Assembly: GCA_016934575.1 (NCBI GenBank)
Contig: JAFGSN010000007.1
Coordinates: forward strand, 528 to 64,527
DNA from: Vicinamibacteria bacterium
GTDB taxonomy: Bacteria > Acidobacteriota > Vicinamibacteria > Fen-336
Length of the DNA: 64,000 nucleotides
Direction of reading: 5' to 3'
Part shown: piece after piece, positions 11,419-58,702 of the stretch
Layout of the letters: each line of letters starts with the position of its first letter
How positions within the stretch are numbered: position 1 is the first letter of the stretch
Made by a program: the position numbers and the translations under genes
Notes under the pieces: generated by a model
Told to the model about the DNA's origin: nothing
The model's database searches: none
What the model saw: the letters and a program-made list of their open reading frames with translations, nothing else

Positions 11419-13692
11419 TCACGGCTTCGGCGCGTCGAGGACCTCCCGCACCTTGTTCGAAATCTCGCTCGGAGTGAACGGCTTGGCCAGGAAGGCGCTC
11501 CCGGGCTCCAGGACGCCGCGGTGAACGACGGCGTTGGCAGTGTAGCCCGACATGAAAAGGACCTTCGTTTCGGGACGCAGCGCTTTCACGGCCTCGGCCA
11601 CCTGCACGCCGTTTCCGCCGCCGGAGATAACGACGTCCGTCAGCAACAGATGGATCGGGCCTTCATGGTCCGTGCATATTTGACGGGCCCGCGCGCCGTC
11701 TTTGGCCGCCAATACTCGATAACCCTGAAGCGTCAAGACCTCCGCAATCAGATTCCGCACCATATCCTGGTCTTCCAGCAACAAGATCGTTTCCGAGGCT
11801 TCCCGGTCCGCCGCCGGTTTCTCCGCGCTTTGCGTCGTTTCGACGGCGCCCTCGATCCGCGGGAGATAGACCTTGAAAGAGGCTCCCTGTCCCAACGCGC
11901 TATAGACTCCGATATGACCGCCGCTCTGACTCACGATGCCATGTGTCGTCGCCAGGCCCAGGCCCGTACCCTTGCCTTTTTCCTTCGTCGTGAAGAACGG
12001 ATCGAAAACACGCGCCAGAGTCCCCTCGTCCATGCCGACGCCGGTATCGGTCACGCTCAATAGAACATACGGCCCGGCCGCGACTCCGGCGTGCTCTCGC
12101 GTATACGCCTCGTCGAGGGTGACGTTGCGCGTTTCGATCGTGAGCGCGCCTCCTCCGGGCATCGCGTCACGAGCATTCACCGCCAGGTTGACGATGACTT
12201 GCTCCAACTGCGCCGCGTCGGCTCGAACGCTTCCCAGATGCGCGTCGCATATGGTCTTCAGATCGACGTCCTCGCCGAGCAAGCGCCGCAGCATGTCCTC
12301 GATGTTGGCGACGATGGCGTTCAGATCGAGGATCTGCGGTTGCAGTATCTGTTGCCGGCTAAACGCCAGTAGTTGCGACGTCAGGCCGGCGGCGCGCCGC
12401 GCGGCCGTCTTGATCTGGTCCGTCACTCGGTAAGAGGAATGGCCTGGATTCAAGTCACAAAGCAGCAGCTCACTGCTGCCGATAATCACCGTCAAAAGAT
12501 TGTTGAAGTCATGAGCGACGCCTCCCGTCAATCGTCCAAGTGCCTCCATCTTCTGCGCCTGGTGGTATTGCGCCTCCAGCCGCTGTTGTTCCGCGCGCAG
12601 GCGCGCGCGAGTCAGAACTCCCGAGACCTGGCTGGCGACGCTCTCGACCAACTTGACCTCCGTATCGGAAAAACGATGCGGCCGAGAAGCGCCCAGCTCC
12701 AACGCGCCCATGATCGTCTCTTGCATCAGAAGGGGAACGGCGAGCAGCGATCCAATCCCGAGAGAGCTGATCCGATCGCTCTGCGACGACACCCGCTCGT
12801 CGGTCGAGATGTCGCTCACGATCAGCGTCTTCCTGTGCCTCAACACGTGCTCGGCCGCGACGACAAGCGCCGTTTCATTCGATGTCGACTCGCCGGAAAC
12901 GAAATGCCGCGCCACGACGACGGCTTTCATCCGCTGGTCATCGAGCAGAACCGCTTCGACGTAGGACACTTCGAGAGCCTCCGCCAGCTCCCGGCAGACG
13001 ACGTCACAAACGCCGCGCTCGTCTCCTTCGCTCACGGAAGCGGCCACCACTCGGTTGAGCAACGTGAGATCGCGATTGCTGCGCTGCAGATCTCTTTCCG
13101 CGCGCCGGCGTTCGCCGATTTCCTCGGTAAGGCTTTTGTTGGCTCGCGCCAGCTCGGCGGTTCTCTCCGCCACACGGCGCTCCAGGTCGGTCTGTGCGTC
13201 CCGCAAGCCGCGCTCGGCCTCCTGGCGAACCGAGATTTCCCGCATGAGCGCCGCGTTTTGCGCGGCCAGCCGCTTTTGCATGGATCGCAGGGCCAGGTGC
13301 GTCCTGACTCGAGCCAGAACCTCGTCGATCTGCACGGGCTTCGTCAGGTAGTCAACCGCTCCGACTTCGAATCCCGTGAGTTTACGTTCGATATCGTTCA
13401 AAGAAGTCATGAATACAACGGGGATGTTCTTCGTACGTTCGGACATTTTCAGCCGACGGCACGTCTCGAAACCGTCCAAATCCGGCATGAGAACGTCCAG
13501 CAGTATGAGGTCGGGTTGCGCGTATTCAGCCTTGTCGATTCCGCCCTGCCCGTCCCTGGCGGTCAGCGTATCGAATCCATGGCTGATCAGGACGTTCGCC
13601 AGGATCTGTAGCGCAGAGATCGAATCATCGATGACGAGGATCGTCTGTTTCTCGTCATTGGCGGGAGTCGGGGAGCTCTTCGTGTCATTCAT
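11419..13692 (-). CDS. hybrid sensor histidine kinase (REC - coiled coil - GAF - HisKA - HATPase_c - REC)
   Basis: N-terminal receiver [22 protein letters not shown]-box [12 protein letters not shown]-box [12 protein letters not shown]-boxes DTGVGM and GTGLGLA. C-terminal receiver [15 protein letters not shown]. Its start ATG overlaps the stop of the upstream 2009-aa gene (ATGA). Confidence 0.9.
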
Positions 13693-16600: not shown

Positions 16601-19600
16601 CGACGAATTCAAAAACGCCCGCCGTCAAGCCTTCCCGGACGCCTTCTTCTAGCAAAGGCAGCGTCCGTCTGAGGTGATCATAACGATGCACGACGAAGCC
16701 GCCGATGCCCGTGTTCATTGACGGGATGAAGCGCGCCGTACGGAATCTCTCCTTGAAAATCCGCCGAGTCGCGTCAGTCAACAGGCGGGCCTTCGGCACG
16801 TCGTGCAAGGCCGCGCACAGCAGCAGCGCGAATGTCGCCAGCGTCACCGGCGCGCATGCCGCAAGTCCTTGTTCGAGACACAGTCGCGTGATACGGGACA
16901 CGAATACCAGGCACAACTCGGCGTTCGTGCCGTAAACCGGCCCGTTGATCATGACGGCGACTTCCAGGATCGATCCAAGCTCGGGCGGACCGTCCGGAAT
17001 CTCGGGAATTTTCCGGATGCGGTCCTCGGTCAGCCAGGCCGCCGTCTCCTGCAGATAGGCGAACGCTTCCTCGCGCGATGCGGAGCGATTGACCGACACG
17101 CCCATGCCTTCGATGAAGCCGAGGCCCAGATCGATGGCCTCGACGTATCGCGCCTGCGAAAGAAGGCCGCCGATCTTGGCCAGCACCACCTCGGAGGTGT
17201 CGGCGATCGTACGTGCATGGGCTTCCACGGTCGCGCAGACAGACGCCAGACGGTCATACTCTCCAGTCAGCGACAGACACGTGGCGAGCCTCGAAAGCGA
17301 TCTCAACATCCAGGAGTATTGCGAAGCCCAGGCGCCTTCGGGCGGAAGAGCCAGGGCCGTGTCCAGGTAGGCCACGGCCGACTGATACGCCGCCGCGCGA
17401 TAGGCGGCTTCCGCGGCATGGACGTTCAACTCGGCGAGCTCCCGGCGTCGATTCGGATCGTTGATGAGGTCGATCGCCTGGTTGTGATGCTGCGCGATGT
17501 CGAACACGCGCCGATCAATATCCGCCGCGGGCGTATCGCCGAGCAACACGCCGCCGATCTCCAGATGGAGACTCCGGCGCTCCGGCAAGGGGATTCGAGC
17601 ATAGGCCGCTTGCCGCACACGGTCGTGCGGGAAGGACAGACGCGTATCAACAAGGCCCTCGGTGCGCGCGCGCTCGCCATTGAGGCGAACCAACAAGCCC
17701 TCGCGTAAAGCCTCTGACAGATCAGCGAACGTGTCCGACTCGCTCGCATGACCGATGAGCGCCAGCGTGCGCAAATCGAACTCGCTCCCGATGCACGCGG
17801 CGAGGCTCAACCAGCGACCCGCTTTCGGCGAGAGTTTCTCGATCTTGGCGCTCATGAGATCGATCACGTCTTGCGTCATGCTTCGAGACTGGATCTCCGC
17901 CAAGTTCCAGGTCCAGCGCCGGTTCCCAAAATCGAAGCGCAGTTGATCCTCTTCGTACAGATTCTGCAGCAACTGCCGGGCGAACAAGGCATTGCCGAAT
18001 GTTCGGGCGTGCACCATATCGGCCAGGGCCCGACAGTCTTCGCAAGCGCAGAAAACGCTGTCCTGCACCAGAGCCCGCACGTCCGTTGCGCAAAGATCGG
18101 CCAGCTTGACGGTCTGCATGGGCAAACCGGCCGCCGCGAGGGCCGCCAATGTCGCTCTCAACGGATGCTTCGCTTCCACCTCGTTGTCGCGATAGGCGCC
18201 GATCAGCAACAAGTGCGTCGTGGCGTGATCGGTCAGGAGCGTCTCCATCAGTTTCAGGGACGCCGAGTCCGCCCATTGCAGGTCGTCGAGGAACACGACC
18301 AACGGATGCTCGTCCGTGCCAATGCAGCGCAGGAAGTTACGGAAAGTCATGTGAAATCGGTTGCGGTTTTCCTGGCCGCTGAGCGGCGCGACAGCGCCCT
18401 GCCGTCCGATGACGTGTTCCAGCTCGGGAATCAATTCGATCAGCACCGCTCCGTTGTCGCCCACGGCCGCAATCACCTTGTCCCGCCAGCTCGCCAGAAC
18501 CGGTTCCGTTTCCGCGAGAAGGACGTCGATAAGGCGGCTGAAGGCATGCGTGAAGGCGAGGTAGGGCGTGTTCTGCTGATACTGATCGAACTTGCCCCTG
18601 GCGAAGTAACCGCCTTTCTCCATGATCGGCTTCTGCGCCTCCGCCACGAGCGCCGACTTGCCGACGCCCGCGCCGCCAGCAATGAGCAGCAGCTCGCGGC
18701 TCCCGGCGGCTGCTCGACCGAACGCGTCTTGAAGGATGTCCAGCTCGGCGGATCGCCCGTAGAGCTTCTGTGGAAGCTGAAGCCGACCGAAGTAGTCCTC
18801 CTGACCCAAGGAAAAGCCTCGAACCGCGACAGCCGTCGAATCCTGCTCCTGCGTATAGGAGAGACTGCGTTTGAGGTCGGCCTGCAATCCAAACGCGGAC
18901 TGGTAACGATCGTCCGGATTTTTGGCCAACAGCTTGAGCACGATATCGGAAAGAACCTGCGGCACGGCCGGATTGGCGATCGTCGCCGGTTGAGGCATCC
19001 TGGCGATATGGGCGTGCACCAGTGCGACGGGATCATCGCTTTCGAATGGCGGCCGGCCGCTCAACATCTCATACAAAGTGATGCCCAGCGAGTACAGATC
19101 GGCCCGGTGATCAACGCCGCGGCTGACTCTCCCGGTCTGCTCCGGCGACAAATAGGAAAGCGTTCCCTCCCAGGATTCGGGGACGGCGCCAGCCGGCGCC
19201 AACCGACTCAAGCGCGCGGCCAGGCCGAAGTCGATCAGCTTGAGATCGCCGGTCTCGAGGTTGAACGCGATGTTGGACGGATTGACGTCCCGATGGATGA
19301 TTTCGGCGGCGTGGATCTGTCCCAGGGCAGTCGCGGCCCGGACGGCCAGATCGATGAACAGCGGCAACGGAAAGGCGGGATCGCCGGCACGCCTCCATTT
19401 CTCCAGCCAACGGTTCAGGGATGATCCGCCGAAGTCTTCCAAGACGAGAATGAGGCCGCCGTCGTGGTTTTCAAGATCATGGACGCCGGTCACGCCGGAA
19501 GCGTTCAGTTGACGCAAGACTTCATATTCGTTCCGATAACGCGCCAGATTCTCCGGCGTTGCCTGATCCGGCGCGAGCATCTTGAGCATCACCGGACATT

Positions 19601-19718
19601 GATCCAGCTTGCGAATCGCTCGCCAGACGATCGTTCTGGCGCTCTCATACACCAGCTCGACGACTTGATAGCCGGGGACGTCGAGACCTGGCGTCGATCG
19701 TCCGGCGGACGTTCTCAT
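13689..19718 (-). CDS. multidomain Ser/Thr protein kinase - AAA/STAND-like NTPase - helical repeats - GAF - histidine kinase - receiver
   Basis: 2009 aa. Hanks kinase motifs [12 protein letters not shown] and SPEQ. Walker A GGAGVGKS with Walker [13 protein letters not shown] long TPR-like helical region. H-box [13 protein letters not shown]. HATPase DTGVGL and GTGLGLAI. Receiver [20 protein letters not shown]. Confidence 0.9.
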
Positions 19719-20050: not shown

Positions 20051-21685
20051 CTACTCGGATGCTCGAACACGTCGCATGACACCTGCCGCCTGGAACACCG
20101 CCATGCCCATCCCGACGACAAGCACGAGAAACCCGATGATCGCGCCCGCCCAGGGAAGGTTGACCGCGACACGGAGAATCAAAAGCCCCAGCAGCAGGGC
20201 GAGCAAGAACGAACGCCCATTGCCGTCGCCGGAACGTAGCAGAGACCGTCCGACAAGAGCCGCCACGAAAATGGAAGCCATATACATCGTCGCCAGCCAA
20301 GCCGCCAGCGCCAGCAGCGCCATCGGTAGTCCGATGAGCGTCATCCCGGAAAGCAGGGCCGCCAAGGGAACGGCGATCAACGTCACGAAACCGACGCCGC
20401 TGCTGCGTAACAAGGACGCGCCGCTCTGTGGCTTTGGCATGAACAAGCCGGGCGCCAGCCAGAAGAGCACGGCGCCCGTCAAGCAAGCCGCGACCAGGCG
20501 AACGAGTTGCCAGACGTAGAAACGCGAGTGGGCATAACGGCTGGTCGAGAAGCGCGGGCGCTTCTCGTTGATCTCAACTCGACCTCGTACGCCACGCTCC
20601 TCTGTCGCGTCCGCCGTCTCGATTGCGACGGTGCGCTTGTCCTTCACGTCAGCCGTGACGTCACCGCCCACGTATCCGGTCGCGGCGATGAGAATGCGCT
20701 CGCCTTTGAAACGCAGGTTTCTCCCGACGCGCCCCGGAACCTCGACCCAGCGTCCAAAGACGCGCGCATCGCCGTCGACGCGACCCTCGATCTTGGCGCC
20801 GTCCGTGAAAACGTAAATATCGCGCGCCACGCTGCTGCCGGACGCGATTCCAACCCGTTTGGCCATGGAGTGCACGTTTCTCCGCACCTCGCCACGCAGG
20901 CTCAGAAACTCGGTGAGAGAGTAGATGTCGCCCGTGACCTCGCCGTCCACATCGAGCTCCTTGGCGGCGCAGATCAAGGAACCGCCGACGGCGCCCGTCA
21001 CTCGAATGCGCTCGCCGGCGGCGATGACGTCGCCCTTGACGTTGCCGTCGATGAATGCCGTCTCGCCGGCTATGAATAACGTGTCGTCGATGGTCTCGTC
21101 CGCCGGGACGATCGCGATGCCGTTCGCGCTTTTCGGAAAGCGCGTCACGGTGGCCGACGCGGCGGAAGGCAGCATGAACGCCAGCACGATCACGCCGGCC
21201 AGCATGACAGCGGGGCGCCGGCGCAAGACGCGACCGCAACCGAGGGCGAAGATGACGATCGAAGCGATACTCACGCTCTGAAAGAACATGGCGACTCCTC
21301 CTTGTGGAAAACCGACAAGAACTCTTGGAATCAGGCTCAGGTGAAGCCACGGATTGGTCGGATCCAGCCATCTCAACGCAAACGGCAGGCGCAGTTGAGA
21401 CAGCTCGGCGAAAAACGCGTGCATGCCCAACGCGGAGACGGCTACGGCCGCGAGAATCCACGCGAGATGCGACGGCGCGATCGCCGCGGGCCGGCGCACG
21501 ACGCCTTTCGCCGGCTCGGGCAAGCGAAGAACCCGCGCAATCGTCGCGGATTCTTCCCGCAGGCCGGCCACCAGTCTTCTGCAGGATTCGCAGCGCGCAA
21601 GATGAGATTCGACGCGCCGCGTCGCTTCGGGATCCAGCTCGCCGTCCGCGTAGATCGAGTAGACCAGCTCGGATTCACAGACCAT
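20051..21685 (-). CDS. anti-sigma factor (zf-HC2) with bactofilin-like repeat domain and polytopic C-terminus
   Basis: The N-terminus YADGELDPEATRRVESHLARCESCRRL is a zf-HC2 anti-sigma motif. This is followed by TM segments, then about 200 aa of repeating V/I-x-G-D/N-V units (IDGNVKGDVIAAGERIRVTGAVGGSL..). About 5 C-terminal TM helices follow. It overlaps the sigma gene stop by 11 nt. Confidence 0.75.
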   Translation of the reverse strand: MVCESELVYSIYADGELDPEATRRVESHLARCESCRRLVAGLREESATIARVLRLPEPAKGVVRRPAAIAPSHLAWILAAVAVSALGMHAFFAELSQLRLPFALRWLDPTNPWLHLSLIPRVLVGFPQGGVAMFFQSVSIASIVIFALGCGRVLRRRPAVMLAGVIVLAFMLPSAASATVTRFPKSANGIAIVPADETIDDTLFIAGETAFIDGNVKGDVIAAGERIRVTGAVGGSLICAAKELDVDGEVTGDIYSLTEFLSLRGEVRRNVHSMAKRVGIASGSSVARDIYVFTDGAKIEGRVDGDARVFGRWVEVPGRVGRNLRFKGERILIAATGYVGGDVTADVKDKRTVAIETADATEERGVRGRVEINEKRPRFSTSRYAHSRFYVWQLVRLVAACLTGAVLFWLAPGLFMPKPQSGASLLRSSGVGFVTLIAVPLAALLSGMTLIGLPMALLALAAWLATMYMASIFVAALVGRSLLRSGDGNGRSFLLALLLGLLILRVAVNLPWAGAIIGFLVLVVGMGMAVFQAAGVMRRVRASE

Positions 21686-22217
21686 GGGACTCCCCCTGCG
21701 CGCCGAGCGCCCGGCGCAGCCGCTGCTTCGCTCGAAACAGAAGCACCGCCACGTTCTGCCGCGTGAGATCCAGCGCGGCCGCGATCTCGTCGTATGTCAG
21801 CTCCTCGAAGTACCGTAAGGTCAGCGGGACACGATAGCTCTCCGGCAGATCCGCCACCGCCGTCCGCACCGCTTCGCGACGTTCTTCGCAGAGCAATTGC
21901 GTCAGCGGCCCGCCTCCAGGCTCCGCCCACTCGCGCTCCGCGCCATTCTTGAAAACGAGATTCTCCCGGCGCCGTTTCCGCAGCATGTCCATACATTGGT
22001 TGCGAGCGATGCCCAGAATCCAGCGCCGGAAAGGCAAGTTCGCGTCATACGTCGCGTATGCGCGCTGCGCCTTCAAGAACGCCTCGTTCATCGCATCCTC
22101 CGCCGCATGCGAGCCCAGAAGGTGGCGGCAGAGCGCCAGGACATCGCCCGCGTGCGCGTCGTAGAGCCGGCCAAAATCCCCGTTTTCGACGTCCTGTCGT
22201 TGGCTGGACCGATTCAG
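21675..22217 (-). CDS. ECF-type RNA polymerase sigma factor (start codon unresolved, CTG proposed)
   Basis: Region 2 (DFGRLYDAHAGDVLALCRHLLGSHAAEDAMNEAFLKA..FRRWILGIARNQCMDMLRKRRR) and region 4 (PESYRVPLTLRYFEELTYDEIAAALDLTRQNVAVLLFRAKQRL) are present. The track ORF starts at ATG 22091, inside region 2. The frame is open up to the stop at 22221-22223, and CTG at 22217-22215 is the only start-like codon. GGAGG lies at 22228-22224. Confidence 0.8.
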   Translation of the reverse strand: MNRSSQRQDVENGDFGRLYDAHAGDVLALCRHLLGSHAAEDAMNEAFLKAQRAYATYDANLPFRRWILGIARNQCMDMLRKRRRENLVFKNGAEREWAEPGGGPLTQLLCEERREAVRTAVADLPESYRVPLTLRYFEELTYDEIAAALDLTRQNVAVLLFRAKQRLRRALGAQGESHGL

Positions 22218-35056: not shown

Positions 35057-36679
35057 CTAACGCAGGAGTCGTCGAAGACCTTTAAGCGCGGGGTCCTTAG
35101 GAGAGAGCACGGCCAGCTCCTCGCGCGCCCCCTCGTGTTGCTGCTTGATGGAGAGAACCGCCCGAAACTCGACGATGGCCCGTGAACGCTGCCTCATCGC
35201 CTTGTAATACAGACCGAACTGATAGTGATAATCGGCGTTGTTCGGAGACAAGCGCAGCGCCTCGAGAAACTCGCGCTCGGCATGTTTGGACGTGCGAGGA
35301 TAAAGCGCCATCGCCAGCGCCAGGCGAATCCTCAGCTCGGATTCCTCCGGCATGAGGTTGACGAGCTTCGAATACGTGCGCACGGCGTTGGCGAAGTCGC
35401 CGACGGTCATGCGCAGCTCGCCCTCCATGAGCAGATAGCGCGCCTGTTCTTCGACGGGCAGGACGCCGCGATTGATCCCCGTTGCTCCGGCGGGCGCCTC
35501 CGCGGGCGGCGCTGACGGCACGGGTTGGGACGACGCCGGCAATGCCATCTGCGGGGCGACGGGTTCTGGCGGGGCTGGCTCGGGAACAATATCGAACCCG
35601 TCGATGGGTATCGTGCTCGGCGATGTCGTCTGAGGCTGGGAAGGAGGCGGCTGTTGTCGTGTCAGCCGCAGCAAAGAGGATGCCCGTCCGAGGATCAGCT
35701 CGATGTCGGTGCGCAGAGCCTCGTCGTCTCCGACGGCCTCGAGCAAGGCCTGATAACGTTCCATCTTGTCCTCGAGCGCTCGCAGTAGATCAGCGCGCGG
35801 CGCCGTGCGTGAGATCTTGAGCCACGTCTCCCGATCAAGGTTGGACGAGCGCTCGAGCTCATCCTTGACTTCCTTGAGGATGGCCTCACGCGCCGAAGGA
35901 TCCGGCCGTTTCTGCAGAGCGGAGAGCAGAAAAAGACCGGTCTCGGTCTGAAAGCCGGGCTGCGGCTCGACGGCCGTCTCGTCCGCCTCTCGCAGCAATC
36001 CCGACATGAGCAGCCCATAGACGGAACGCATTCTCTCGAACTGAATCCCCCCCGGCGCCCAGGCCAGCCTTCTCAACGTGGCCCGCCGCGCGGCCTGTGC
36101 GAGGATTTCGCGTTCCTCGATCGGGCAGGCTTCGATGTCGAAGAGAAAGGGAAGGGAATCGGCCGCCGTCACCCAGCGATCGAGGTTGTCCAGGCCGACC
36201 GTCACCAACTCCTGGCTGGCCATGGTCTTGACGCCGTCGTAAAGCAGGCGATGAACCGAGAAGCTGACCATGTACTCGAGCGGTATGGGACAGCGTCGAT
36301 CCTCGAAGGTGGCCAGTCCGTCGGTGAAGCTGAAAACCGAAAGAATGATGCGGCGCACCTGTCGCGCGACGGAAGTGCCAAGCTGCCGTTTGTCGAGCAC
36401 GCCCGCCAGCACGAGGGCCTCGCCGAATCGACGATGGCCTTCCTTCATCAGTTGCGACGCGCGACGGAAATCCTCCTCGCTGATGTGCCCCATGGCGACC
36501 AGCGACTCGCCCAGCCGATCGCGTTTAAGGTTGCTCGCCGCGAAAACAACGCGGCCGTGATCGAAAAAGACCGTCTTGACGATAGCGCGGGAATGCACTT
36601 GCAGGTCCCCGCTGCGTCGTTCCGCGGACAGACGCCGGAGCACCCTGGCAAACGGCGTAACGGAGAGATCGGCCAACAT
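35057..36679 (-). CDS. DUF4388 (PATAN-like) domain protein with C-terminal TPR repeats
   Basis: The N-terminus LADLSVTPFARVLRRLSAERRSGDLQVHSRAIVKTVFFDHGRVVFAASN is typical of DUF4388. The C-terminal repeats are TPR-like (YSKLVNLMPEESELRIRLALA.., ALRLSPNNADYHYQFGLYY). Confidence 0.7.
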   Translation of the reverse strand: MLADLSVTPFARVLRRLSAERRSGDLQVHSRAIVKTVFFDHGRVVFAASNLKRDRLGESLVAMGHISEEDFRRASQLMKEGHRRFGEALVLAGVLDKRQLGTSVARQVRRIILSVFSFTDGLATFEDRRCPIPLEYMVSFSVHRLLYDGVKTMASQELVTVGLDNLDRWVTAADSLPFLFDIEACPIEEREILAQAARRATLRRLAWAPGGIQFERMRSVYGLLMSGLLREADETAVEPQPGFQTETGLFLLSALQKRPDPSAREAILKEVKDELERSSNLDRETWLKISRTAPRADLLRALEDKMERYQALLEAVGDDEALRTDIELILGRASSLLRLTRQQPPPSQPQTTSPSTIPIDGFDIVPEPAPPEPVAPQMALPASSQPVPSAPPAEAPAGATGINRGVLPVEEQARYLLMEGELRMTVGDFANAVRTYSKLVNLMPEESELRIRLALAMALYPRTSKHAEREFLEALRLSPNNADYHYQFGLYYKAMRQRSRAIVEFRAVLSIKQQHEGAREELAVLSPKDPALKGLRRLLR

Positions 36680-36927: not shown

Positions 36928-37206
36928 ATGCGGTTGTCGTCAGACGAGATCCTGTTCATCGCCAAGAAGATCGTCCGGAGGCTGGTCTCCGAAGAGAAGC
37001 TGCAAGTCGACTCCGAGGAGCGCGTCGCCATGGCCATCGCGAAGATCATCGCCGACGAGCTGGCGGTCGAAGACCGCCTGAACCAGGAAGTCCGGGAAAC
37101 GCTCATGCTGCACGCCTCCGAGCTCGAGCGCTCGAACGTCACCTACACGGAGATGTTCAAGATGCTCAAGAAGAAAATGGCCAAGGAGAAGGGGATCGTC
37201 CTGTGA
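36928..37206 (+). CDS. DUF507 family protein
   Basis: 92 aa, a charged helical protein. MRLSSDEILFIAKKIVRRLVSEEKL...EVRETL matches my recollection of DUF507. It is paired with a paralog downstream. Confidence 0.7.
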   Translation: MRLSSDEILFIAKKIVRRLVSEEKLQVDSEERVAMAIAKIIADELAVEDRLNQEVRETLMLHASELERSNVTYTEMFKMLKKKMAKEKGIVL

Positions 37207-37484
37207 AGCTATCGCGGGAGAAGATCCTGCTTCTGTCCCACTCGATCCTCGACTATCTGAACTCCGATGACGAAATCGAGTACTTCGTCGATCCCCAGGA
37301 ATTGCGCCGAGAGATCGTGCATACGATCACCGAAGAAATCAAGGCGGACGAGAACATCGACAGGCTCGCGCGCAAGAAGATCGAGAGTCAAAAACGTCTG
37401 ATTCTTGAGGGTTCGGAGGAATGGGAGATACTCTACCGTAAATACTATGAGGAGGAGGCGGCCGCGCGACGTAAAGTCGTTTAA
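37203..37484 (+). CDS. DUF507 family protein (paralog)
   Basis: 93 aa. MKLSREKILLLSHSILDYLNSDDEIEY...KKIESQKRLILEGSEEWEILYRKYYEEE. It overlaps the upstream paralog by 4 nt. Confidence 0.7.
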   Translation: MKLSREKILLLSHSILDYLNSDDEIEYFVDPQELRREIVHTITEEIKADENIDRLARKKIESQKRLILEGSEEWEILYRKYYEEEAAARRKVV

Positions 37485-37953: not shown

Positions 37954-38451
37954 TTACGCCTGCTGCTCGCGCCGCACGAGGAAATGAAGGTTGTCCTCCA
38001 GTTCCGCCTCTTCCTGGAGATCGATCAGATGGGCCACTCGGCTGATCAGCGCGCGGATGTCGGAGCGGAGCGCCTGCCGCTGAGAGCGCAGATCGAGAAT
38101 CGTCTTGTCGATGTCGCCCGCACGCTCCCGCGCCAGTTCCAGCAAGCGGTCGGCGCGCAGCTCGGCTTCTTTCACGATCCCCTCGGCCTGCTTGCGGGCG
38201 TTGTCTTTCATCTCCTCGGTCAGGCGCTGGGCGGTGAGCAGAGTGTTCTTCAGGATGGTCTCACGGTTGCGAAAATCCTCGACCAGGCCGCGTAGAGTCG
38301 CGACCTCGCGCTCGAAGATGTCGCGTTCCTTCTGCAGCGCGGCCGCTTCCTCGGCGATAAAACCAAGATATGTCCGGACCTCGTCTCGATCGTATCCCCG
38401 GAAGCTCTTCTTGAAGACTTGCCTTTGAATCTCCATGGTGTTGATCTTCAT
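37954..38451 (-). CDS. DivIVA domain-containing protein
   Basis: The N-terminus MEIQRQVFKKSFRGYDRDEVRTYLGFIAEE is followed by a coiled coil. Confidence 0.85.
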   Translation of the reverse strand: MKINTMEIQRQVFKKSFRGYDRDEVRTYLGFIAEEAAALQKERDIFEREVATLRGLVEDFRNRETILKNTLLTAQRLTEEMKDNARKQAEGIVKEAELRADRLLELARERAGDIDKTILDLRSQRQALRSDIRALISRVAHLIDLQEEAELEDNLHFLVRREQQA

Positions 38452-42094: not shown

Positions 42095-43612
42095 ATGGTC
42101 CAGTTCAATTTCAGCGAACGGACCATCAAAGTAAAGGTGGTCTACTATGGACCCGCGCAGTCCGGCAAGACCACCAATCTCGAACAAATCCATCGCATAA
42201 CGGATCCCGGCGGCATGAACCGTCTGATTTCTCTCAACACCGCTCAGGACCGCACGCTCTTCTTCGACCTTCTTCCTTTCAGCCTGGGGGCGGTCTCGGG
42301 ATACGACCTCAAGATTCAGCTCTACACCGTTCCAGGGCAGGTGCAATACAACGCGACGCGACGGGTGGTGTTGGCTGGAGCTGACGCCGTCGTTTTCGTG
42401 GCGGACTCGAGACGTATCATGCAAAAGGAGAACGTCGCTTCCTTCGAGAACATGAAAGTCAATCTGCTTGCCAACCGCCTCGTTCCCGAAAAAATCCCTC
42501 TTGTCCTGCAATACAACAAACGCGATCTGCCCGAGCTTTTCGGCGAGACCGACCTCGACAAGGCGCTCAATCCTTGGCAACGACCGAGCTTCCCGGCCGT
42601 GGCCACCGAGGGCCAGGGCGTGATGGAGACGTTCACGGCCGTGGTCGTCGAGACGATCGGCGCCATCGCCGTGAAATACAACCTCAAGGAAAAGGGGCTC
42701 GATCCGGCGCGCGTGCCCGATCTGGTGCGTTCGGCCTTTGCCACCGTGAGGCAACAGGCCGCGCAGGCGCAACAGCAGACGCCTGCCGGCGGTTCTCCCA
42801 GACGACTCGTCGTGACCCAGGCGGCGGAATCCACGGCGGTCCAGGCGATGCCTTCTACGGGGGACGGTGGGTTGGTTTCCGAGGACCTGCTTCACAGGGC
42901 GATTCGTTCGAACGTCGAGCTTGCCGAAGCGCTCGGCGACGTCGTGCAGCAGATGAGCCAAGGGCTGGCCTCGATCCTCTCCCAGGCGGAGATCGGCACG
43001 CTCTATCGAGAGGACGCCAAGCGGATTCAGGCGTTGCAGAGCATTCGCGAGGATGCTCTGAAGTTGCGGGAAACCGTTCAGAGCCTTGGCGCGACCGTCG
43101 AGATGGCCGGCGGCACGCCGCCGCGGCCGTCCGTCAATCGTCCCGCTCCGGCGCGTTCGGCGCCGTCTCCGACGCCGGTGGACAACTTCGAGAAGACCAT
43201 CCACGACCTCGTGGCCAGCGCGCGAACGACGCTCGAAGATCGCGGCATCACGCTCGATCTTCGCGTGGCGCCGCGCAGCCCGTCCCCGACGGGAGACTTC
43301 CGCCGCGCCGTGAGCGCTCTGCTTCGCGCCGTGTCGGACACGGCGTCGCCCGGCTCTGCCGCGATGCGCTGCGAGAGAAAACCGGTGCTCTTGCGAACGA
43401 GCGCCGGCGAAGTGCGACGCGATTTCCTCATGATCGCCCTGGCCCATTCCGGAGGCCTTCCAGCTCAAGAACAACAACGCGTCCTGCAAGGAGCCGGGAG
43501 CGGATCCACGGCCGAAGCACATCGCATCGTGAGAGAGATGGGCGGGTTTCTCCGATTTGCGCCGCTCTCGAGCGGCGGTCTCGAAACACGTATTTTTCTT
43601 CCCGTCGTCTGA
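42095..43612 (+). CDS. MglA-type Ras-like GTPase fused to a degenerate histidine-kinase-like (DHp + CA) module
   Basis: Residues 1-195 contain VKVVYYGPAQSGKTTNL (P-loop), DRTLFFD (switch I), LYTVPGQ (the MglA-specific G3) and YNKRD (G4). The C-terminal half aligns by eye to the HK at 11419-13692. EALGDVVQQMSQGLASIL aligns with [18 protein letters not shown] (His to Gln). LLRAVSDTA aligns with NLAVNARDA (Asn lost). LAHSGGL aligns with VTDTGVGM (Asp lost). The tail HRIVREMGGFLRF..GLETRIFLP is conserved. Confidence 0.8.
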   Translation: MVQFNFSERTIKVKVVYYGPAQSGKTTNLEQIHRITDPGGMNRLISLNTAQDRTLFFDLLPFSLGAVSGYDLKIQLYTVPGQVQYNATRRVVLAGADAVVFVADSRRIMQKENVASFENMKVNLLANRLVPEKIPLVLQYNKRDLPELFGETDLDKALNPWQRPSFPAVATEGQGVMETFTAVVVETIGAIAVKYNLKEKGLDPARVPDLVRSAFATVRQQAAQAQQQTPAGGSPRRLVVTQAAESTAVQAMPSTGDGGLVSEDLLHRAIRSNVELAEALGDVVQQMSQGLASILSQAEIGTLYREDAKRIQALQSIREDALKLRETVQSLGATVEMAGGTPPRPSVNRPAPARSAPSPTPVDNFEKTIHDLVASARTTLEDRGITLDLRVAPRSPSPTGDFRRAVSALLRAVSDTASPGSAAMRCERKPVLLRTSAGEVRRDFLMIALAHSGGLPAQEQQRVLQGAGSGSTAEAHRIVREMGGFLRFAPLSSGGLETRIFLPVV

Positions 43613-47974: not shown

Positions 47975-48340
47975 ATGGAAGAGCCGAGCAGATCCGGTAG
48001 TGAACGGCCGGAAGGTCCCGAGCGCCGTAAGTATCCCCGATACATCGTCGATCTCGCGGTCCGTGTCACGGGCACTTTCGGCGCGTTCACGGGACGGGTG
48101 TGCGACATCTGTCGCGACGCGGTCTGGATCGAAAGCGAGAAGGATGTGGCGCCGGACGTGGACGTGGTGTTGTCGATCGAGTTCCCGGGAGAACGTTTCT
48201 CGGACGTCGGCGGGCGCGTGATTCGCACCGGACCCGGCGAGCGACAACCGCACGGCATGGCGGTGCTCTTCACGAGCGTCTCCCCGGCCACGACGACCGC
48301 AATAGATTTTTTCATCGCATCGCAATCAGACCCCGACTGA
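47975..48340 (+). CDS. PilZ domain protein (second c-di-GMP motif degenerate)
   Basis: ERRKYPRYIV matches RxxxR. The expected D/NxSxxG position reads DICRDA. 121 aa. Confidence 0.7.
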   Translation: MEEPSRSGSERPEGPERRKYPRYIVDLAVRVTGTFGAFTGRVCDICRDAVWIESEKDVAPDVDVVLSIEFPGERFSDVGGRVIRTGPGERQPHGMAVLFTSVSPATTTAIDFFIASQSDPD

Positions 48341-49415
48341 GAAGCCGGGACAGGATGCTCAAGACGTCATTCTCGGGAATGGGGCAGATCCCGAGAATCG
48401 AACGCACGCTCCACTCGCCGTTGATCCGCGAGAGCACGAAGCCTTCGCGTGGATCGAGCGACTCTTGCGTGAGATCCGCAAGCGCCCGCGCGAGAACAGG
48501 CACGCCGTCCAGATTCACTCCGCGCGGCGGCTCCCTGTCGTGCTCCTCGGCCAGGGCCAGCAGACCCTTCTTGGCATGCTGGTTGATCGGATCAAGGCGC
48601 AAGATTTCCTCGAATTCCTTGGCGGCGGCGGCGTGATCGCGTTGATCGATGCGGTCTTGTGCGCGTTTCAACAGACCGTCGATCACGCCGACCATGTCGG
48701 CCTCGGTCGACGGCGATCCCCCTCCGATGACGTCCAAGAGATTCCGCTCATGAAGCCGGAAGAGGATCACGGCCGTTTCGTACTCCGAGCGCCGTGTTTC
48801 GAGCGCGATCTCGGCCAGACTCATGCCGGACGCGGCCAGATCGAGCGCTTGGTCTTCAATAACGCTGGTCGTTCGTTTCTGCGGATCCGAGACGTGAAAC
48901 CGAACCCGAGCATGGGGCAGCGTACGCCGGATGCGCGTCCAGTCGTCCACGCGGCGAATCCCCTCGAGCACCAGCTCGGTGACGTTCAGGTCGACGTGAA
49001 CGGCGATTTCGTCCGGCAGATCGTTCTCAAGGAAATCGAATTGACCTTCAGCCCAGAGAAAGGCGTCATAAATGGACTCCTCGGCCTTGACCTGCAACAG
49101 CCCGCGCAGTTCCGTCGCAGTCAGCACGCCGTCCTCGATGAGGATCACTCCCAGAAGCCGCCCTTCGCGTTCCTGGCGCAACAGAGCTTCAAAGAGCTGC
49201 TGCTCCGTCAAGCGCCGGTCGCGTATGAGGAACTGGCCAAGCCGGTCGCGCGGGTGATTCGACCAGGAGGAGATGAGGCGCCCTTCGCGAAAAAGCAGCC
49301 GCTTCTCCACCGCGCGCCGCATCAGATGAAGGGTGCCGGTCTTGCGGCCCGTTCCGATCCACTGCAAGACGTCCGGCAGCGGCATCGTCACGAGATTCCC
49401 GGCGAGCGAACTCAC
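48312..49415 (-). CDS. DUF4388 (PATAN-like) domain protein
   Basis: The N-terminus LAGNLVTMPLPDVLQWIGTGRKTGTLHLMRRAVEKRLLFREGRLISSWSN is typical of DUF4388. Its 3' end overlaps the convergent PilZ gene by 29 nt. Confidence 0.7.
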   Translation of the reverse strand: MSSLAGNLVTMPLPDVLQWIGTGRKTGTLHLMRRAVEKRLLFREGRLISSWSNHPRDRLGQFLIRDRRLTEQQLFEALLRQEREGRLLGVILIEDGVLTATELRGLLQVKAEESIYDAFLWAEGQFDFLENDLPDEIAVHVDLNVTELVLEGIRRVDDWTRIRRTLPHARVRFHVSDPQKRTTSVIEDQALDLAASGMSLAEIALETRRSEYETAVILFRLHERNLLDVIGGGSPSTEADMVGVIDGLLKRAQDRIDQRDHAAAAKEFEEILRLDPINQHAKKGLLALAEEHDREPPRGVNLDGVPVLARALADLTQESLDPREGFVLSRINGEWSVRSILGICPIPENDVLSILSRLLSRGLIAMR

Positions 49416-55107: not shown

Positions 55108-55683
55108 TCATGCGGGCGCGATGCCGCGAGCAGTCGTGGAAGGCCGTGGCGCGACGCGGCCTTGACTGGAATCCTCCCGCGCGATGGAATGCGCCAGCCG
55201 CGCCTTCTCGTCCCCGCTCAGGAGGCGATCGGCGTCGATCAAAAGGGTCAGGCGGCCGTCTGTTCGTATGGCGCCGCGCGCATACGCGGCGCTCTCGCTG
55301 AAAAGACGCGGCGGAATCGGTTCGATCTCCCTTCGCAGCACGCGTTGCGTGGCATGCAGAACGTCGACGCGCAGGCCGAATATGGAATCGTCGATCTCGA
55401 CGAAGAGCACTCGGTTCGTGGGCGTCTCGGTTCCCGCGTCTTTCAGTCCGAAACGCTCTCGCAGAGAAACCACCGGCGCCCGTTCGTTGCGAAACAAGCG
55501 AACGCCGAACAGCAAAGGCCCCCACGCCGCCGGACGCTCCTCGCACGAGGACGGGGCGATGCCGACGACGGAGGCGACGTCCAGGGCGTAGCGCTGGTCG
55601 CCCACCTCGAAGCTCACGACCCGCACGCTCTCCTCGTATCGCGCGTCCAGGGTCTGACGCGATGCAACGCTTTCGGGACTCAT
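55108..55683 (-). CDS. cheW: chemotaxis coupling protein CheW
   Basis: VVSFEVGDQRYALDVASVVGI...VLFVEIDDSIFGLRVDVLHATQRV..GAIRTDGRLTLLIDADRLL. The ATG overlaps the EAL gene stop (ATGA), with AAGGAGG just upstream. The ORF opens at 56046. Confidence 0.85.
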   Translation of the reverse strand: MSPESVASRQTLDARYEESVRVVSFEVGDQRYALDVASVVGIAPSSCEERPAAWGPLLFGVRLFRNERAPVVSLRERFGLKDAGTETPTNRVLFVEIDDSIFGLRVDVLHATQRVLRREIEPIPPRLFSESAAYARGAIRTDGRLTLLIDADRLLSGDEKARLAHSIAREDSSQGRVAPRPSTTARGIAPA

Positions 55684-56408
55684 GGAACCTCCTTGGCGCG
55701 CGCCGGGCGCTCTTCCGTCGATTCTGCATGCACGTCCTCGGCCCACCGAATCGCCTCGTTGAACGGCAGCGGCGCGCAAAGATGGCCGCCTTCGGCATAA
55801 TCGACTCCAAGAGATTTCAGCGTGCCGAGATCCTCGCGGCTCGTCACGCCGTCCGCGATCACCGCCGAGCCCAGTTTCCAGGCCAGATGCGTGATCGCTT
55901 CCAGCACGGCCTGTCGATTGACGTCTCTGGCGCAGTCGCGCACCACGTAGTCCGAAATCCGGAGATAGTCGGGATGCGTCTCCAGGAGAAGCCGATAACT
56001 CGCGTTGGAGCATTCCGTCGCCACCGAGACGCGAATGCCCGCCCAACGCAACTCATCCAGCATGTCGGCCAGCGCTTCTTTCGAAACGGAGCATCCGGCG
56101 CCGATCTCGACGATCAGACGCTTCCTCGTCTTCTGCGCCGCGCGCGACGAGTCGAAGAGCGCTTCGATGTCTTTCCTCACGAGATCATCCGCCGAAACTT
56201 CGAGATACAGGGCCGCTTCCGCCCGTTCCTCCGCGGCCTTCTGTAACAGGGTCTCGATCAACTCCCGGCCATGAATCGCCGGAATCGACTCGCCGGCAAG
56301 CCGTCCGCTGCATCTGGGATGGAGCGCCAGCACCGTCGGTCGTTCAGGAATCAAAGACACGATGGGTTGATACGTCAAGCCGATCCCGTCCTCGAAAGAC
56401 CCGCTCAT
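55680..56408 (-). CDS. degenerate EAL-domain protein
   Basis: YQPIVSL opens an EAL fold. The E-A-L position reads LALHPR, and the N of NLS reads LEVS. DDFGTG reads VATECSN, and EGVE reads ADGVTS. Only the E in LIVEIG and the D of RISD are kept. Confidence 0.7.
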   Translation of the reverse strand: MSGSFEDGIGLTYQPIVSLIPERPTVLALHPRCSGRLAGESIPAIHGRELIETLLQKAAEERAEAALYLEVSADDLVRKDIEALFDSSRAAQKTRKRLIVEIGAGCSVSKEALADMLDELRWAGIRVSVATECSNASYRLLLETHPDYLRISDYVVRDCARDVNRQAVLEAITHLAWKLGSAVIADGVTSREDLGTLKSLGVDYAEGGHLCAPLPFNEAIRWAEDVHAESTEERPARAKEVP

Positions 56409-56628
56409 GAGGGCTGCTCCTCTCTGGATTGTTTCTAAAATCTATCGCCTTGCGAGCGCGGCGTATATCGGCCGGATTCTGAAACTTCTGTCGGAATCTT
56501 CCGACGCTCCGGGACCATAAGATGTCATTGCCCCGTCCGCCGCTGCATCGACGCGCTATTTTTACGATTGGATTCGAAGGTTTCGACTGTAAACGCTGAC
56601 TCAATACATGAGCAATGCGGTCCGAGTG

Positions 56629-57714
56629 TCAGTCGACCTGGCGTCCCATGCGGCGCAGGACGGAGGCGGGAATGCCGTTGAGCGACACGATCTCGTTCGC
56701 GGCTCCTCGCGCAATGGCCTCGCGCGGCATGCCGAAAACGACGCAAGAAGCTTCGTCCTGAGCAATCGTCCATGCGCCGGCGCGTTTCATTTCGAGCAGC
56801 CCTTCCGCCCCGTCGTCCCCCATCCCCGTCATGATCACTCCGACCGCGTTGCCGCCCGCCGACTGCGCCGCCGAACGAAAGAGCACGTCGACGCTCGGGC
56901 GGTGTCGCGAGACGAGCGGGCCGTCGCGCACCTCGACTCGATAATGAGAGCCGCTGCGAGCGAGCAGCATATGCCGATTGCCGGGAGCGACGAGCGCCCG
57001 GCCGGCCGTCACTTCATCGTTGTTCTCGGCTTCCTTGACTTGAAGCGCGCAGCCCTGATCCAGGCGAGCCGCGAACGCGCGCGTGAACTCCTCGGGCATG
57101 TGCTGAACGATCACGATCCCGGGCGTGTCGCTCGGCAGGGTTTGCAGCAGATAATGCAGCGCCTCCGTTCCTCCGGTTGACGCGCCGATCGCCACGACTT
57201 TTTCCGTCGTGATGCTCATCCGCTTACGCACGGGCGGAGGCAGCATGACGTCCGCCGTCTGCCGCGGCTCGCCCTTTCGCTTGCGAAACAGACGCGCCGA
57301 GGCCGCGGCTCTCACCGCGTCGATGATCATCACCGCCGACTCCTCGAGGAAGCCCTGCACGTCGAGCCTGGGTTTCGTGATCACCTCGAGCGCGCCCTCC
57401 TCGAGCGCGCGTATGGCCAGCGCCGTCCCTTCTCCCGTGTGCGCGGAGCAGATGACGACCGGGATCGGATCCTCGCGCATGATCTTTCGAAGGAACGTCA
57501 TCCCGTCCATGCGAGGAAGCTCGAGATCCAGAATGATCACGTCAGGTCTGCTGAGCTTCATCTTCTGCATGGCGATGATCGGATCCGCCGCGGCCTGGAC
57601 CTCGATCCCGGGATCCCGCGACAAGACGGCCGGCATCGCCATGCGCACGACAGCCGAGTCGTCCACGACGAGCACGTTCAGCGGACTGGCTTTCAAGGAA
57701 AAGTCGGGGGACAT
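56629..57714 (-). CDS. cheB: chemotaxis response regulator protein-glutamate methylesterase CheB
   Basis: Receiver [24 protein letters not shown], plus the methylesterase motifs [16 protein letters not shown] and TGMGDDG. Confidence 0.95.
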
Positions 57715-57824
57715 CGCGGCCTTTCAGGCATGCGGTGATACGGCTCCCATCAACACTAAATATTACTTTCGATCGAAGCGAACGCCAACTGCAAGGCGTT
57801 CTTTTCGACCGGCGTTCTTCCGAG

Positions 57825-58511
57825 TCAATCGTCGGGCAGAAGTCGACCGGGAGGAGTTTCCTTGAAACGTACATGGAGCCGCGCGACGCCGTCCTTACCG
57901 ACGTGAATGGAGCGAACAACGGCCTCCGTTCGGTAAGCACCCCCGATTTCCTCGATGACGATCTCTTCTCCCGCGACGATGGATTGCGCCGTCGGCAGGC
58001 ACGCGCCGCCTCTGCTCAGGTCTTCAGTGACCGACTGTTCCAAGCCCTCGTCGCCCGCGGCCGTCTTACGATGGAGACGGACGTTCAGGAAAACGTGCCG
58101 GCGGACCGCTCGCCGTCGCTCCTCACGTTCCGGGGGCGGGTCGCCTGGAAGCAGGTATCGGCACGAGGGGTTTTCTTCGAAGCCTTTGGGCGGTTTCTTG
58201 CCCAAAAACTTGAGCCTGACCCACGATCCCTGGGAATCGGTGGAGACGTCGCGAACCAGGGAATAAACACGATAAGTGGGCTGGCCCTGATCGAATTTTC
58301 TCATCTGAGCCGGCAATGCCATGTTCAGAAGCACGATCTGACCGCGTGCGACATGGTTTTTGAGAAGAAAGCTCAGGCCGCCAAAGGAGACGTCGCTACT
58401 TGTCGTGGTCTCCTCCCAGGCGGTTCCGTCCGTCTCAAAACCCTTCACTCGCACTGGAAGACACACGCACGTGCGAGCATGCGCCCTTCGTTCCGTGTCC
58501 GGCCCGTTCAT
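57825..58511 (-). CDS. tandem PilZ-domain protein
   Basis: There are two PilZ units with intact motifs. The first has ERRAHAR plus DVSFGG. The second has ERRRAVR plus DLSRGG. The start is at internal ATG 58511. The ORF opens at 58610. Confidence 0.75.
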   Translation of the reverse strand: MNGPDTERRAHARTCVCLPVRVKGFETDGTAWEETTTSSDVSFGGLSFLLKNHVARGQIVLLNMALPAQMRKFDQGQPTYRVYSLVRDVSTDSQGSWVRLKFLGKKPPKGFEENPSCRYLLPGDPPPEREERRRAVRRHVFLNVRLHRKTAAGDEGLEQSVTEDLSRGGACLPTAQSIVAGEEIVIEEIGGAYRTEAVVRSIHVGKDGVARLHVRFKETPPGRLLPDD

Positions 58512-58702
58512 GGTCACACCCTGATCGACGACGACGACGACACGTCCCGCTTGAGACGACAAGCGCGATTCATTCGGCAAAAGATAGCACCAGTTGGCGC
58601 TGTTGACCACCGCTTTTTATCGAGCGAGAGAAAGGACAAGAAATCGCGAGACAATCAAAATAAATGGCGGTTGCCGGAGTCCGGCGATCCGGGCGCCGCA
58701 GC

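Follow-up and report, generated by a model that had tools for sequence, protein, structure and literature searches.

MglA is the best-understood Ras-like switch of bacteria, and its regulators (MglB, RomR/RomX, and MglC) are all separate proteins. Canonical MglA is a single domain of about 195 amino acids. The mglA and mglB genes are usually neighbors (Wuichet and Sogaard-Andersen, PMC4316618). Here we describe a different arrangement. In a 64-kb stretch of DNA from a Vicinamibacteria bacterium (64,000 nucleotides of contig JAFGSN010000007.1, which we call the window), the gene at 42095..43612 on the forward (+) strand runs from an ATG start through 505 codons to a stop, and it encodes an MglA-type GTPase fused to a pseudo-histidine kinase. 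Its G domain has the same P-loop, Arg53, TVPGQ motif, NKxD motif, and fold as MglA from Myxococcus xanthus and Thermus thermophilus, but the protein continues with a conserved additional helix and about 280 more residues, and no mglB lies close by. Only single-domain proteins were considered in the main survey of small GTPases from prokaryotes (PMC4316618). Databases name members of the fusion family "signal recognition particle receptor subunit beta," "ADP-ribosylation factor-like," or "hypothetical," and our analysis corrects these labels.

The other half of the fusion also has described counterparts. DivL from Caulobacter and RetS from Pseudomonas keep the fold of the two core domains of histidine kinases (DHp and CA) and have no conventional autokinase function, as in the module described here. 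RetS exerts its effect by binding GacS through DHp-DHp contacts, and DivL retains a largely intact CA domain. Both are membrane-associated, multi-sensor proteins without a GTPase; in the fusion, in contrast, the N-box, the G1 box, and the F-box/ATP lid are all gone, and the input is an MglA domain on a disordered tether.

One characterized system pairs an MglA-family GTPase with a histidine-kinase module: the actinobacterial conservon, or AGPS, which consists of the kinase CvnA, the MglB-like CvnB, CvnC, and the MglA-like CvnD (PMC4316618, PMC13343842). Conservons are found in Actinomycetota and encode separate proteins, including a Roadblock protein within the operon, a group 2 MglA, and an active kinase: the membrane-bound CvnA8 shows ATPase activity and autophosphorylation (PMC13343842). 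The fusion, in contrast, is one polypeptide from Acidobacteriota with a dead kinase and a group 1-like GTPase, and it has no Roadblock or cvnC-like neighbor. The Roco proteins follow an analogous logic, in which a Ras-like G domain (Roc) is followed in cis by a dimerization device (COR) and, in LRRK2, by a kinase domain. However, the analogy does not extend to homology: COR and DHp are unrelated, the kinase of LRRK2 is of the eukaryotic type, and Roc is not MglA-type.

Within the library that was searchable, our literature searches found no published description of an MglA-pseudo-kinase fusion, and both of its building blocks are individually well known. An MglA that is permanently tethered to a dimerizing dead kinase core would be a new kind of wiring for a small GTPase, as well as a further class of bacterial pseudo-kinase. 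It would also be a compact system in which to study crosstalk between GTPase state and two-component docking, a question that the conservon leaves open. The hosts are uncultured and are known only from metagenome bins, and we infer function from the analyses below.

A conserved fusion of two well-known parts

More than 280 proteins (90% clustering) of about 500-530 amino acids have the same architecture in a single open reading frame (ORF), and their C-terminal identity ranges down to about 45%. When we scanned one genome per GTDB species, we found 45 loci, all of them in metagenome-assembled genomes (MAGs). All but two carry Acidobacteriota, Acidobacteria, or Vicinamibacteria labels. The two exceptions are on a 2.9-kb contig that was binned as Anaeromyxobacter (L025) and a 6.9-kb contig that was binned as Hyphomicrobium (L029); these contigs are probably mis-binned, which is likelier than horizontal transfer. 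An independently assembled contig of 37.9 kb encodes a protein identical to the window's. Across an alignment of 64 full-length relatives, which also underlies the conservation counts and columns given below, the N-terminus MVQFNFSERTIK is invariant, so the start codon call is correct.

The sequence-only reading of this DNA had taken the ORF to be one gene rather than two genes split by a stop or a frameshift, and the recurrence of the fusion in hundreds of independent assemblies agrees. Given the same single ORF in so many metagenomes and MAGs and the exact protein on another contig, it is exceedingly improbable that an assembly or sequencing error merged mglA with a neighboring degenerate kinase gene. 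Nothing positive points to such an error. Some relatives (P0046, P0141, and P0188) carry frameshifts or truncations, but indels in long-read assemblies account for these broken copies. P0046, the one short relative from a long contig and the only apparent split gene, was considered as a case in which the two halves are naturally separate; instead, it is frameshifted by an indel in a long-read assembly (L049, 4494-6143). Similarly, P0141 and P0188 are not natural variants but garbled, frameshifted long-read products. In one example of a broken copy, TVPGPGPVQ stands in place of TVPGQVQ and the frame is then lost. Thus, the fusion is genuine, and it is conserved in a group of soil Acidobacteriota.

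The N-terminal half (residues 1-195, 42095..42679) is an intact group 1 MglA-type GTPase domain, as judged from its sequence, fold, and motifs. The alignment of residues 4-184 has no gaps, both with structures of M. xanthus MglA (E = 2e-49) and with Thermus MglA (E = 2e-45), and the G domain is 46-49% identical to MglA from M. xanthus or T. thermophilus. When an AlphaFold2 model of the full-length protein was compared to the PDB, the 14 best matches were all MglA structures, at 40-48% identity and with template modeling (TM) scores of 0.79-0.89 when normalized to MglA. The best Foldseek E values for the G domain against MglA reach 1e-17. The resemblance of the first ~195 residues to MglA, which the sequence-only reading had noted, is therefore secure.

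All of the GTPase motifs are present. In the P-loop, G19-PAQSGKT-T27 (42149..42175), residues G19, G24, K25, T26, and T27 are invariant in all 64 relatives. Switch I (D52-R53-T54, 42248..42256) is equally invariant, and its residue numbers match those of M. xanthus MglA; we take R53 to be the intrinsic arginine finger of MglA that is known from MglA-MglB structures. The MglA-specific G3 motif, TVPGQ (T78-Q82, 42326..42340), includes the catalytic Gln82 and is also invariant, as are N141, K142, and D144 of the G4 motif (N141-K-R-D144, 42515..42526). The replacement of Asp by Thr78 in G3 is a hallmark of MglA (PMC3000849). With all motifs intact, the G domain presumably hydrolyzes GTP. The protein differs from canonical group 1 MglA, a single domain of ~195 amino acids: it has 505 amino acids and two further folded modules.

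The C-terminal half descends from a histidine-kinase core (DHp plus CA), and this conclusion is well supported. Searches with Pfam and NCBIfam models found no kinase match in the window protein or in its C-terminal half alone. Taken alone, these single-protein results would wrongly refute a kinase origin, so family-level profiles were needed. The Pfam model for HisKA (PF00512) matched 44 of the 64 relatives, with a best E value of 1.6e-7, though not the window protein itself, and the Pfam model for HATPase_c matched none of the 64. We also built a profile from the C-terminal 250 residues and used HMMER to compare it exhaustively to 1.84 billion proteins. Just 152 representatives had E values of 1e-3 or below. 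The top ~80 of these were members of the fusion family and fragments; below them lay a tail of proteins of 400-900 amino acids, with database-wide E values of 3e-6 to 1e-3. Eight proteins from this tail were examined (E = 3e-6 to 9e-5): all eight contain HATPase_c, and seven of them contain HisKA as well. One apparent homolog, P0169 (2087 amino acids, E = 1e-21), was rejected as an unrelated repeat-rich protein in which seven weak matches, at profile positions ~124-192, add up. Searching PDB sequences with the profile gave weak matches to kinases (best E = 0.044), which are consistent support only.

The predicted structure gives the same answer. A separate AlphaFold2 model of residues 255-505 has a predicted local distance difference test score (pLDDT) of 82, rising above 90 over the alpha/beta domain. 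All of the top 50 PDB matches of this model in Foldseek are DHp-CA cores of histidine kinases or kinase-like modules of phytochromes, with E values of 1e-10 to 5e-8 over 234-282 aligned columns. The matches include LvrB, DivL, RetS, HK853, CusS, ZraS, and SrrB, with DivL and RetS among the best. The CA-like domain is thus assigned to the Bergerat fold through fold matches and profile alignment to HATPase_c regions, without a match to the HATPase_c Pfam model.

The sequence-only reading had proposed the kinase resemblance from a by-eye alignment to another protein of the window, which is encoded at 11419..13692, outside the fusion gene. This is a hybrid histidine kinase (REC-GAF-HisKA-HATPase_c-REC, from its ORF and Pfam domains); its gene lies on the minus (-) strand, which we add to that reading. 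The direct comparison is marginal: 25% identity over 102 amino acids and E = 0.005 by BLASTP (a single comparison), E = 0.019 by hhalign, and E = 0.36 with the family's hidden Markov model (HMM). The by-eye match is therefore not significant on its own and supports the alignment register rather than homology, whereas the family tests above support an origin from the histidine kinases as a class.

Between and beyond the two halves, the protein consists of several well-delimited segments. The G domain is followed by a conserved helical extension that is absent from canonical MglA (residues 196-227, 42680..42775). Its motif, KYNLKEKGLDP..VP.LV..AF, begins within the end of the G domain and runs on into the extension, and Y195, L197, K200-P204, V211, and F215 are invariant. 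Helices are predicted at 176-194 and 204-227, and pLDDT is ~87-93 up to residue ~220. This helix-loop-helix could pack on the G domain, for instance at the site on MglA to which the C-terminal helix of MglB binds (PMC6785124). A first disordered linker, rich in Pro, Ala, Gly, Ser, and Thr (residues 228-260, 42776..42874; pLDDT below 50), leads to the DHp-like helical hairpin (residues 261-337, 42875..43105). The hairpin has predicted helices at 261-303 and 307-337 and is recognized as HisKA-derived by its alignments to the HisKA domains of genuine kinases. A second disordered linker, rich in Pro and Ala (residues 338-363, 43106..43183; pLDDT below 50), joins the hairpin to the CA-like, HATPase_c-derived alpha/beta domain (residues 364-505, 43184..43609), which has pLDDT above 90 in addition to its fold and profile matches and lacks the determinants of ATP binding.

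Both linkers vary in length across the family. The first has 29-42 residues, of which 63% are Pro, Ala, Gly, Ser, or Thr, and a mean pairwise identity of 37%; the second has 13-51 residues, of which 81% are of these types, and an identity of 34%. In the same alignments, the connection between DHp and CA is much shorter in genuine kinases than the second linker is. The full-length AlphaFold2 model, which was made from the 64-sequence alignment, has a mean pLDDT of 78.9 and a predicted TM score (pTM) of 0.51. Such flexible tethers, as predicted, argue against a rigid, coiled-coil type of transmission from the G domain to the DHp domain, and a logic of tethering or avidity would fit better. The sequence-only reading described a GTPase "hard-wired" to a scaffold; this word should be taken as tethering within one chain rather than as rigid coupling.

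The pseudo-kinase module is maintained under purifying selection and is not decaying. Mean pairwise identity is 84% for the G domain (residues 1-184), 62% for segment 185-227, 64% for the DHp-like hairpin, and 57% for the CA-like domain, as compared to 34-37% for the linkers. Dozens of residues in the C-terminal half are invariant, including E263, L265-L266, R268, N273-V274, A277-E278, G290-L291, K429, and V431-L432, and further on F444, M446, Q460, G483-F485, R487-P490, E497, R499, F501, and P503. The confident prediction of the CA-like domain (pLDDT above 90) also fits with a maintained fold.

Loss of the catalytic residues

By its sequence, the C-terminal module is a pseudo-histidine kinase, not a kinase: the DHp-CA fold is kept and the catalytic residues are gone across the family. 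We placed the kinase motifs using alignments of the family HMM to genuine kinases, BLASTP, and hhalign, which all agree. The family's L-V-[R/H/Q]-E-M-N-x-G-L aligns with s-H-E-L-R-T-P-L of kinases, which makes position 285 the phosphoacceptor site; in the window protein, it is Gln (CAG, 42947..42949). The sequence-only reading had reached the same replacement of His by Gln, but from a pattern of EALG followed at equal distance by Gln or His, and this spacing is wrong: the His lies 8 residues after EALG in the kinase, and the family's position lies 4 residues after. The N-box Asn, which is a ligand of Mg-ATP, is replaced by Ala412 (GCC, 43328..43330; "aLLeGva" in the family and "NLLgNAv" in kinases). 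The G1-box Asp, which contacts adenine, is replaced by His451 (CAT, 43445..43447; "laHgG-gL" in the family and "vrDtGvGI" in kinases). Both of these replacements had been read correctly from the sequence, and better alignments do not restore the His, the Asn, or the Asp.

The claim that the G2 box and lid are retained stands only in part. A glycine-rich, G2-like loop is kept (G466-A-G-S-G470, 43490..43504, as compared to GKGTG in kinases), but just upstream of it the F-box/ATP lid is deleted. Genuine kinases have 7-9 extra residues between the "qqrIl" helix and the G2 loop (such as "pFysavhrk" or "PFFTTKEK") that the family does not. The terminal strands are retained, as had been proposed: G483-GFLRFAP...ETRIFLP503 (43541..43603) aligns with the two final strands of the CA domain in kinases. 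Overall, the window protein lacks the features of a HisKA-type kinase, namely, the phosphoacceptor His, the N-box Asn, the G1 Asp, and the F-box/ATP lid, and of the G2 box it has only the GxGxG-like loop. Canonical ATP binding should be impossible because the N-box Asn and the G1 Asp are replaced and the F-box/ATP lid is deleted; given no ATP site and no phosphoacceptor, we call the module a pseudo-histidine kinase.

The degeneration belongs to the whole family and is no recent loss in this genome; it probably took place before the family radiated. Position 412 is Gly in 58 of the 64 relatives, Ala in five, and Ser in one, and never Asn. Position 451 is His in 54, Asn in four, Gln in three, and Tyr, Ser, or Leu in one each, and never Asp. 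Position 285 is more variable, with 38 Arg, 13 His, 6 Gln, 4 Lys, and one each of Gly, Glu, and Tyr. The 13 members with His285 score best as HisKA, yet their ATP site is missing, as it is in every other member. On an approximate neighbor-joining tree, rooted with the most divergent members, there are at least 15 changes at position 285. The residue inferred at the root of this tree is Arg or Gln, and His occurs only in derived subclades, so the ancestral residue was probably not His. Together with P0002-P0004, which are 75-84% identical to it in the C-terminal half, the window protein forms a small clade. This clade has diverged further: it has Gln285, Ser288, Gln297, and GAGSGSTA instead of the family's G.D.GPLG.

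Possible roles of the pseudo-kinase module

By analogy to other proteins, we lean toward the view that the module is a noncatalytic scaffold that dimerizes MglA and offers docking surfaces. In kinases, DHp is a homodimeric four-helix bundle and a docking site for receiver domains. If the DHp-like hairpin of the fusion forms the usual bundle, as DHp domains do generally, then MglA would become bivalent. The conserved surfaces of the DHp-like and CA-like domains might dock a receiver-domain protein or another partner, or else the protein's own G domain. The GTP- or GDP-bound state of MglA would then be linked to the recruitment of a partner or to localization through binding, not phosphotransfer; the sequence-only reading had likewise suggested that nucleotide state may be coupled to dimerization or partner recruitment. 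Since no mglB is found in the window or in the flanks of 47 copies, the fused module might in addition do some of the work of MglB in cis. There are precedents for parts of this scheme. DivL's repurposed kinase module senses the phosphorylation state of a response regulator (PMC4211667), RetS likewise signals by binding, and MglA systems are described as wired to receiver domains through RomR/RomX.

Several observations weigh against a dimerizing and docking scaffold. The structure predictions are of monomers only. With a pTM of 0.51 and disordered linkers, the model does not fix how the modules are arranged or whether the G domain contacts the pseudo-kinase. The occurrence of His at the acceptor position in 13 relatives makes a role related to phosphotransfer possible in some members. 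When we sought a conserved signaling partner next to the fusion in the related neighborhoods, we found none: the recurrent neighbors are housekeeping genes, a Toluene_X channel, and a GDSL lipase. Finally, our search for mglA and mglB covered the window and the flanks of the related copies, and a standalone copy of either might lie elsewhere in these genomes.

A more ambitious proposal is that the MglA switch in this lineage operates without a separate MglB-type partner, with the cis-tethered pseudo-enzyme dimerizing the GTPase and controlling or reading its nucleotide cycle, and potentially docking a receiver-domain protein on the DHp. We view this proposal as speculative and rather unlikely. 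If it is true, the fusion would be a direct physical bridge from a Ras-like GTPase to two-component signaling within one polypeptide.

The missing mglB also bears on whether the pseudo-kinase is chiefly an intramolecular regulator of the G domain, such as a GTPase-activating protein, a guanine nucleotide exchange factor, or a clamp like a guanine nucleotide dissociation inhibitor, that replaces MglB and/or RomR-RomX. Although mglA and mglB usually adjoin, Pfam scans found no Roadblock/LC7 gene anywhere in the 64-kb window, which extends the sequence-only reading's statement that none is adjacent. A tblastn search with M. xanthus MglB (whose sequence we verified against PDB 6h5b) found nothing across 605 kb that comprised the window and 48 loci, and no mglB lies within the 6- to 10-kb flanks of the 47 related copies. 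As a control, tblastn with MglA against the same 605 kb found the fusion gene only. In addition, the flexible tethers would let the C-terminal domains fold back on the G domain, and conservation is unusually high in segment 261-280 (SEELLHRAIRSNVELAEAL) and in the CA-like strand RCERKPVLL. However, the model predicts no confident contact between the modules, and mglB could sit elsewhere in these genomes. With an Arg finger and a catalytic Gln of its own, the G domain would also need help with positioning only, and nothing shows that the CA-like domain supplies that help. We consider this explanation to be rather unlikely.

A part in an unconventional phospho-relay is a much weaker prospect, whether by phosphorylation in trans on some other residue or as a phosphotransferase or phosphatase toward a response regulator, and even if it is confined to the members with His285. 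In those 13 proteins the His lies at the canonical position in a good H-box (HEMNxGL) that scores as HisKA, and the neighboring positions E286, N288, G290, and L291 are conserved. But with the N-box Asn and the G1 Asp absent from all 64 proteins and the ATP lid deleted, autophosphorylation seems implausible in any member. Furthermore, His285 is confined to derived subclades, where it interchanges with Arg, Gln, and Lys by single-base changes, and positions 285 and 297 are both Gln in the window protein. The phosphatase motif of HisKA proteins is a Thr or Asn at His+4; it is not kept in the family, in which position 289 is variable. Two other histidines might seem suited to accept phosphate, as His267 is present in 61 of the 64 proteins and His297 is common, but the divergent members P0144, P0148, and P0170 lack these as well. 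We rejected His267 and His297 as alternative phosphoacceptors, given Gln297 in the window protein and no ATP site in any member.

Gene neighborhoods

To compare neighborhoods, we used GC3-guided gene calls and added missed genes, such as Toluene_X, by hand. Clustering all of the ORFs was not useful, because alternative-frame ORFs of this high-GC DNA chained everything together. Around most of the relatives (~33 of 45 loci), the order is relA/spoT, ridA, and a divergent rpmB, with the fusion just downstream (for instance in L002 and in L003, 5082-7869). A Toluene_X channel and a GDSL lipase sometimes follow the fusion, and other recurrent neighbors are aconitase and an RNase J-like gene. In the window, greA, a SpoU methyltransferase, and an acetyltransferase lie upstream of the fusion instead, and Toluene_X and the lipase follow it. 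Thus, the upstream neighborhood of the window's clade differs from that of the other relatives.

Most of the signaling genes that the sequence-only reading listed for the window are present: two PATAN proteins, DivIVA, PilZ proteins, and CheB were found. CheW was not found in any of the window ORFs that we scanned. The PATAN (PatA_N) proteins are encoded at 35057-36679 (-) and 48312-49415 (-), ~5-7 kb to either side of the fusion, and one of them also has TPR repeats. A link between PATAN proteins and MglB-like genes has been described (PMC4316618). A tandem DUF507 pair and the DivIVA gene (36928-37484, +, and 37954-38451, -) lie upstream of the block of greA, SpoU, and acetyltransferase genes. 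The PATAN, DivIVA, and PilZ genes near the window's copy are not conserved around the distant relatives. Farther away, 55683-58616 (-) encodes an EAL-domain protein, a CheB methylesterase with a receiver domain, and a 263-residue protein with two PilZ matches.

At the other end of the window, 13689-19718 (-) encodes a protein of 2009 amino acids with a Ser/Thr kinase domain, an AAA_16 ATPase, TPR repeats, GAF, HisKA, and HATPase_c domains, and a receiver domain. The stop of this gene and the start of the hybrid kinase gene downstream of it (11419-13692, -) overlap, which suggests that the two form one operon. The gene at 20054-21796 (-) encodes a 581-residue protein with an anti-sigma-type zinc finger (zf-HC2) and a weak, sub-threshold match to bactofilins (E = 3e-5). 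In Myxococcus, bactofilins partner SofG, a paralog of MglA, and the zf-HC2 protein may be relevant to polarity.

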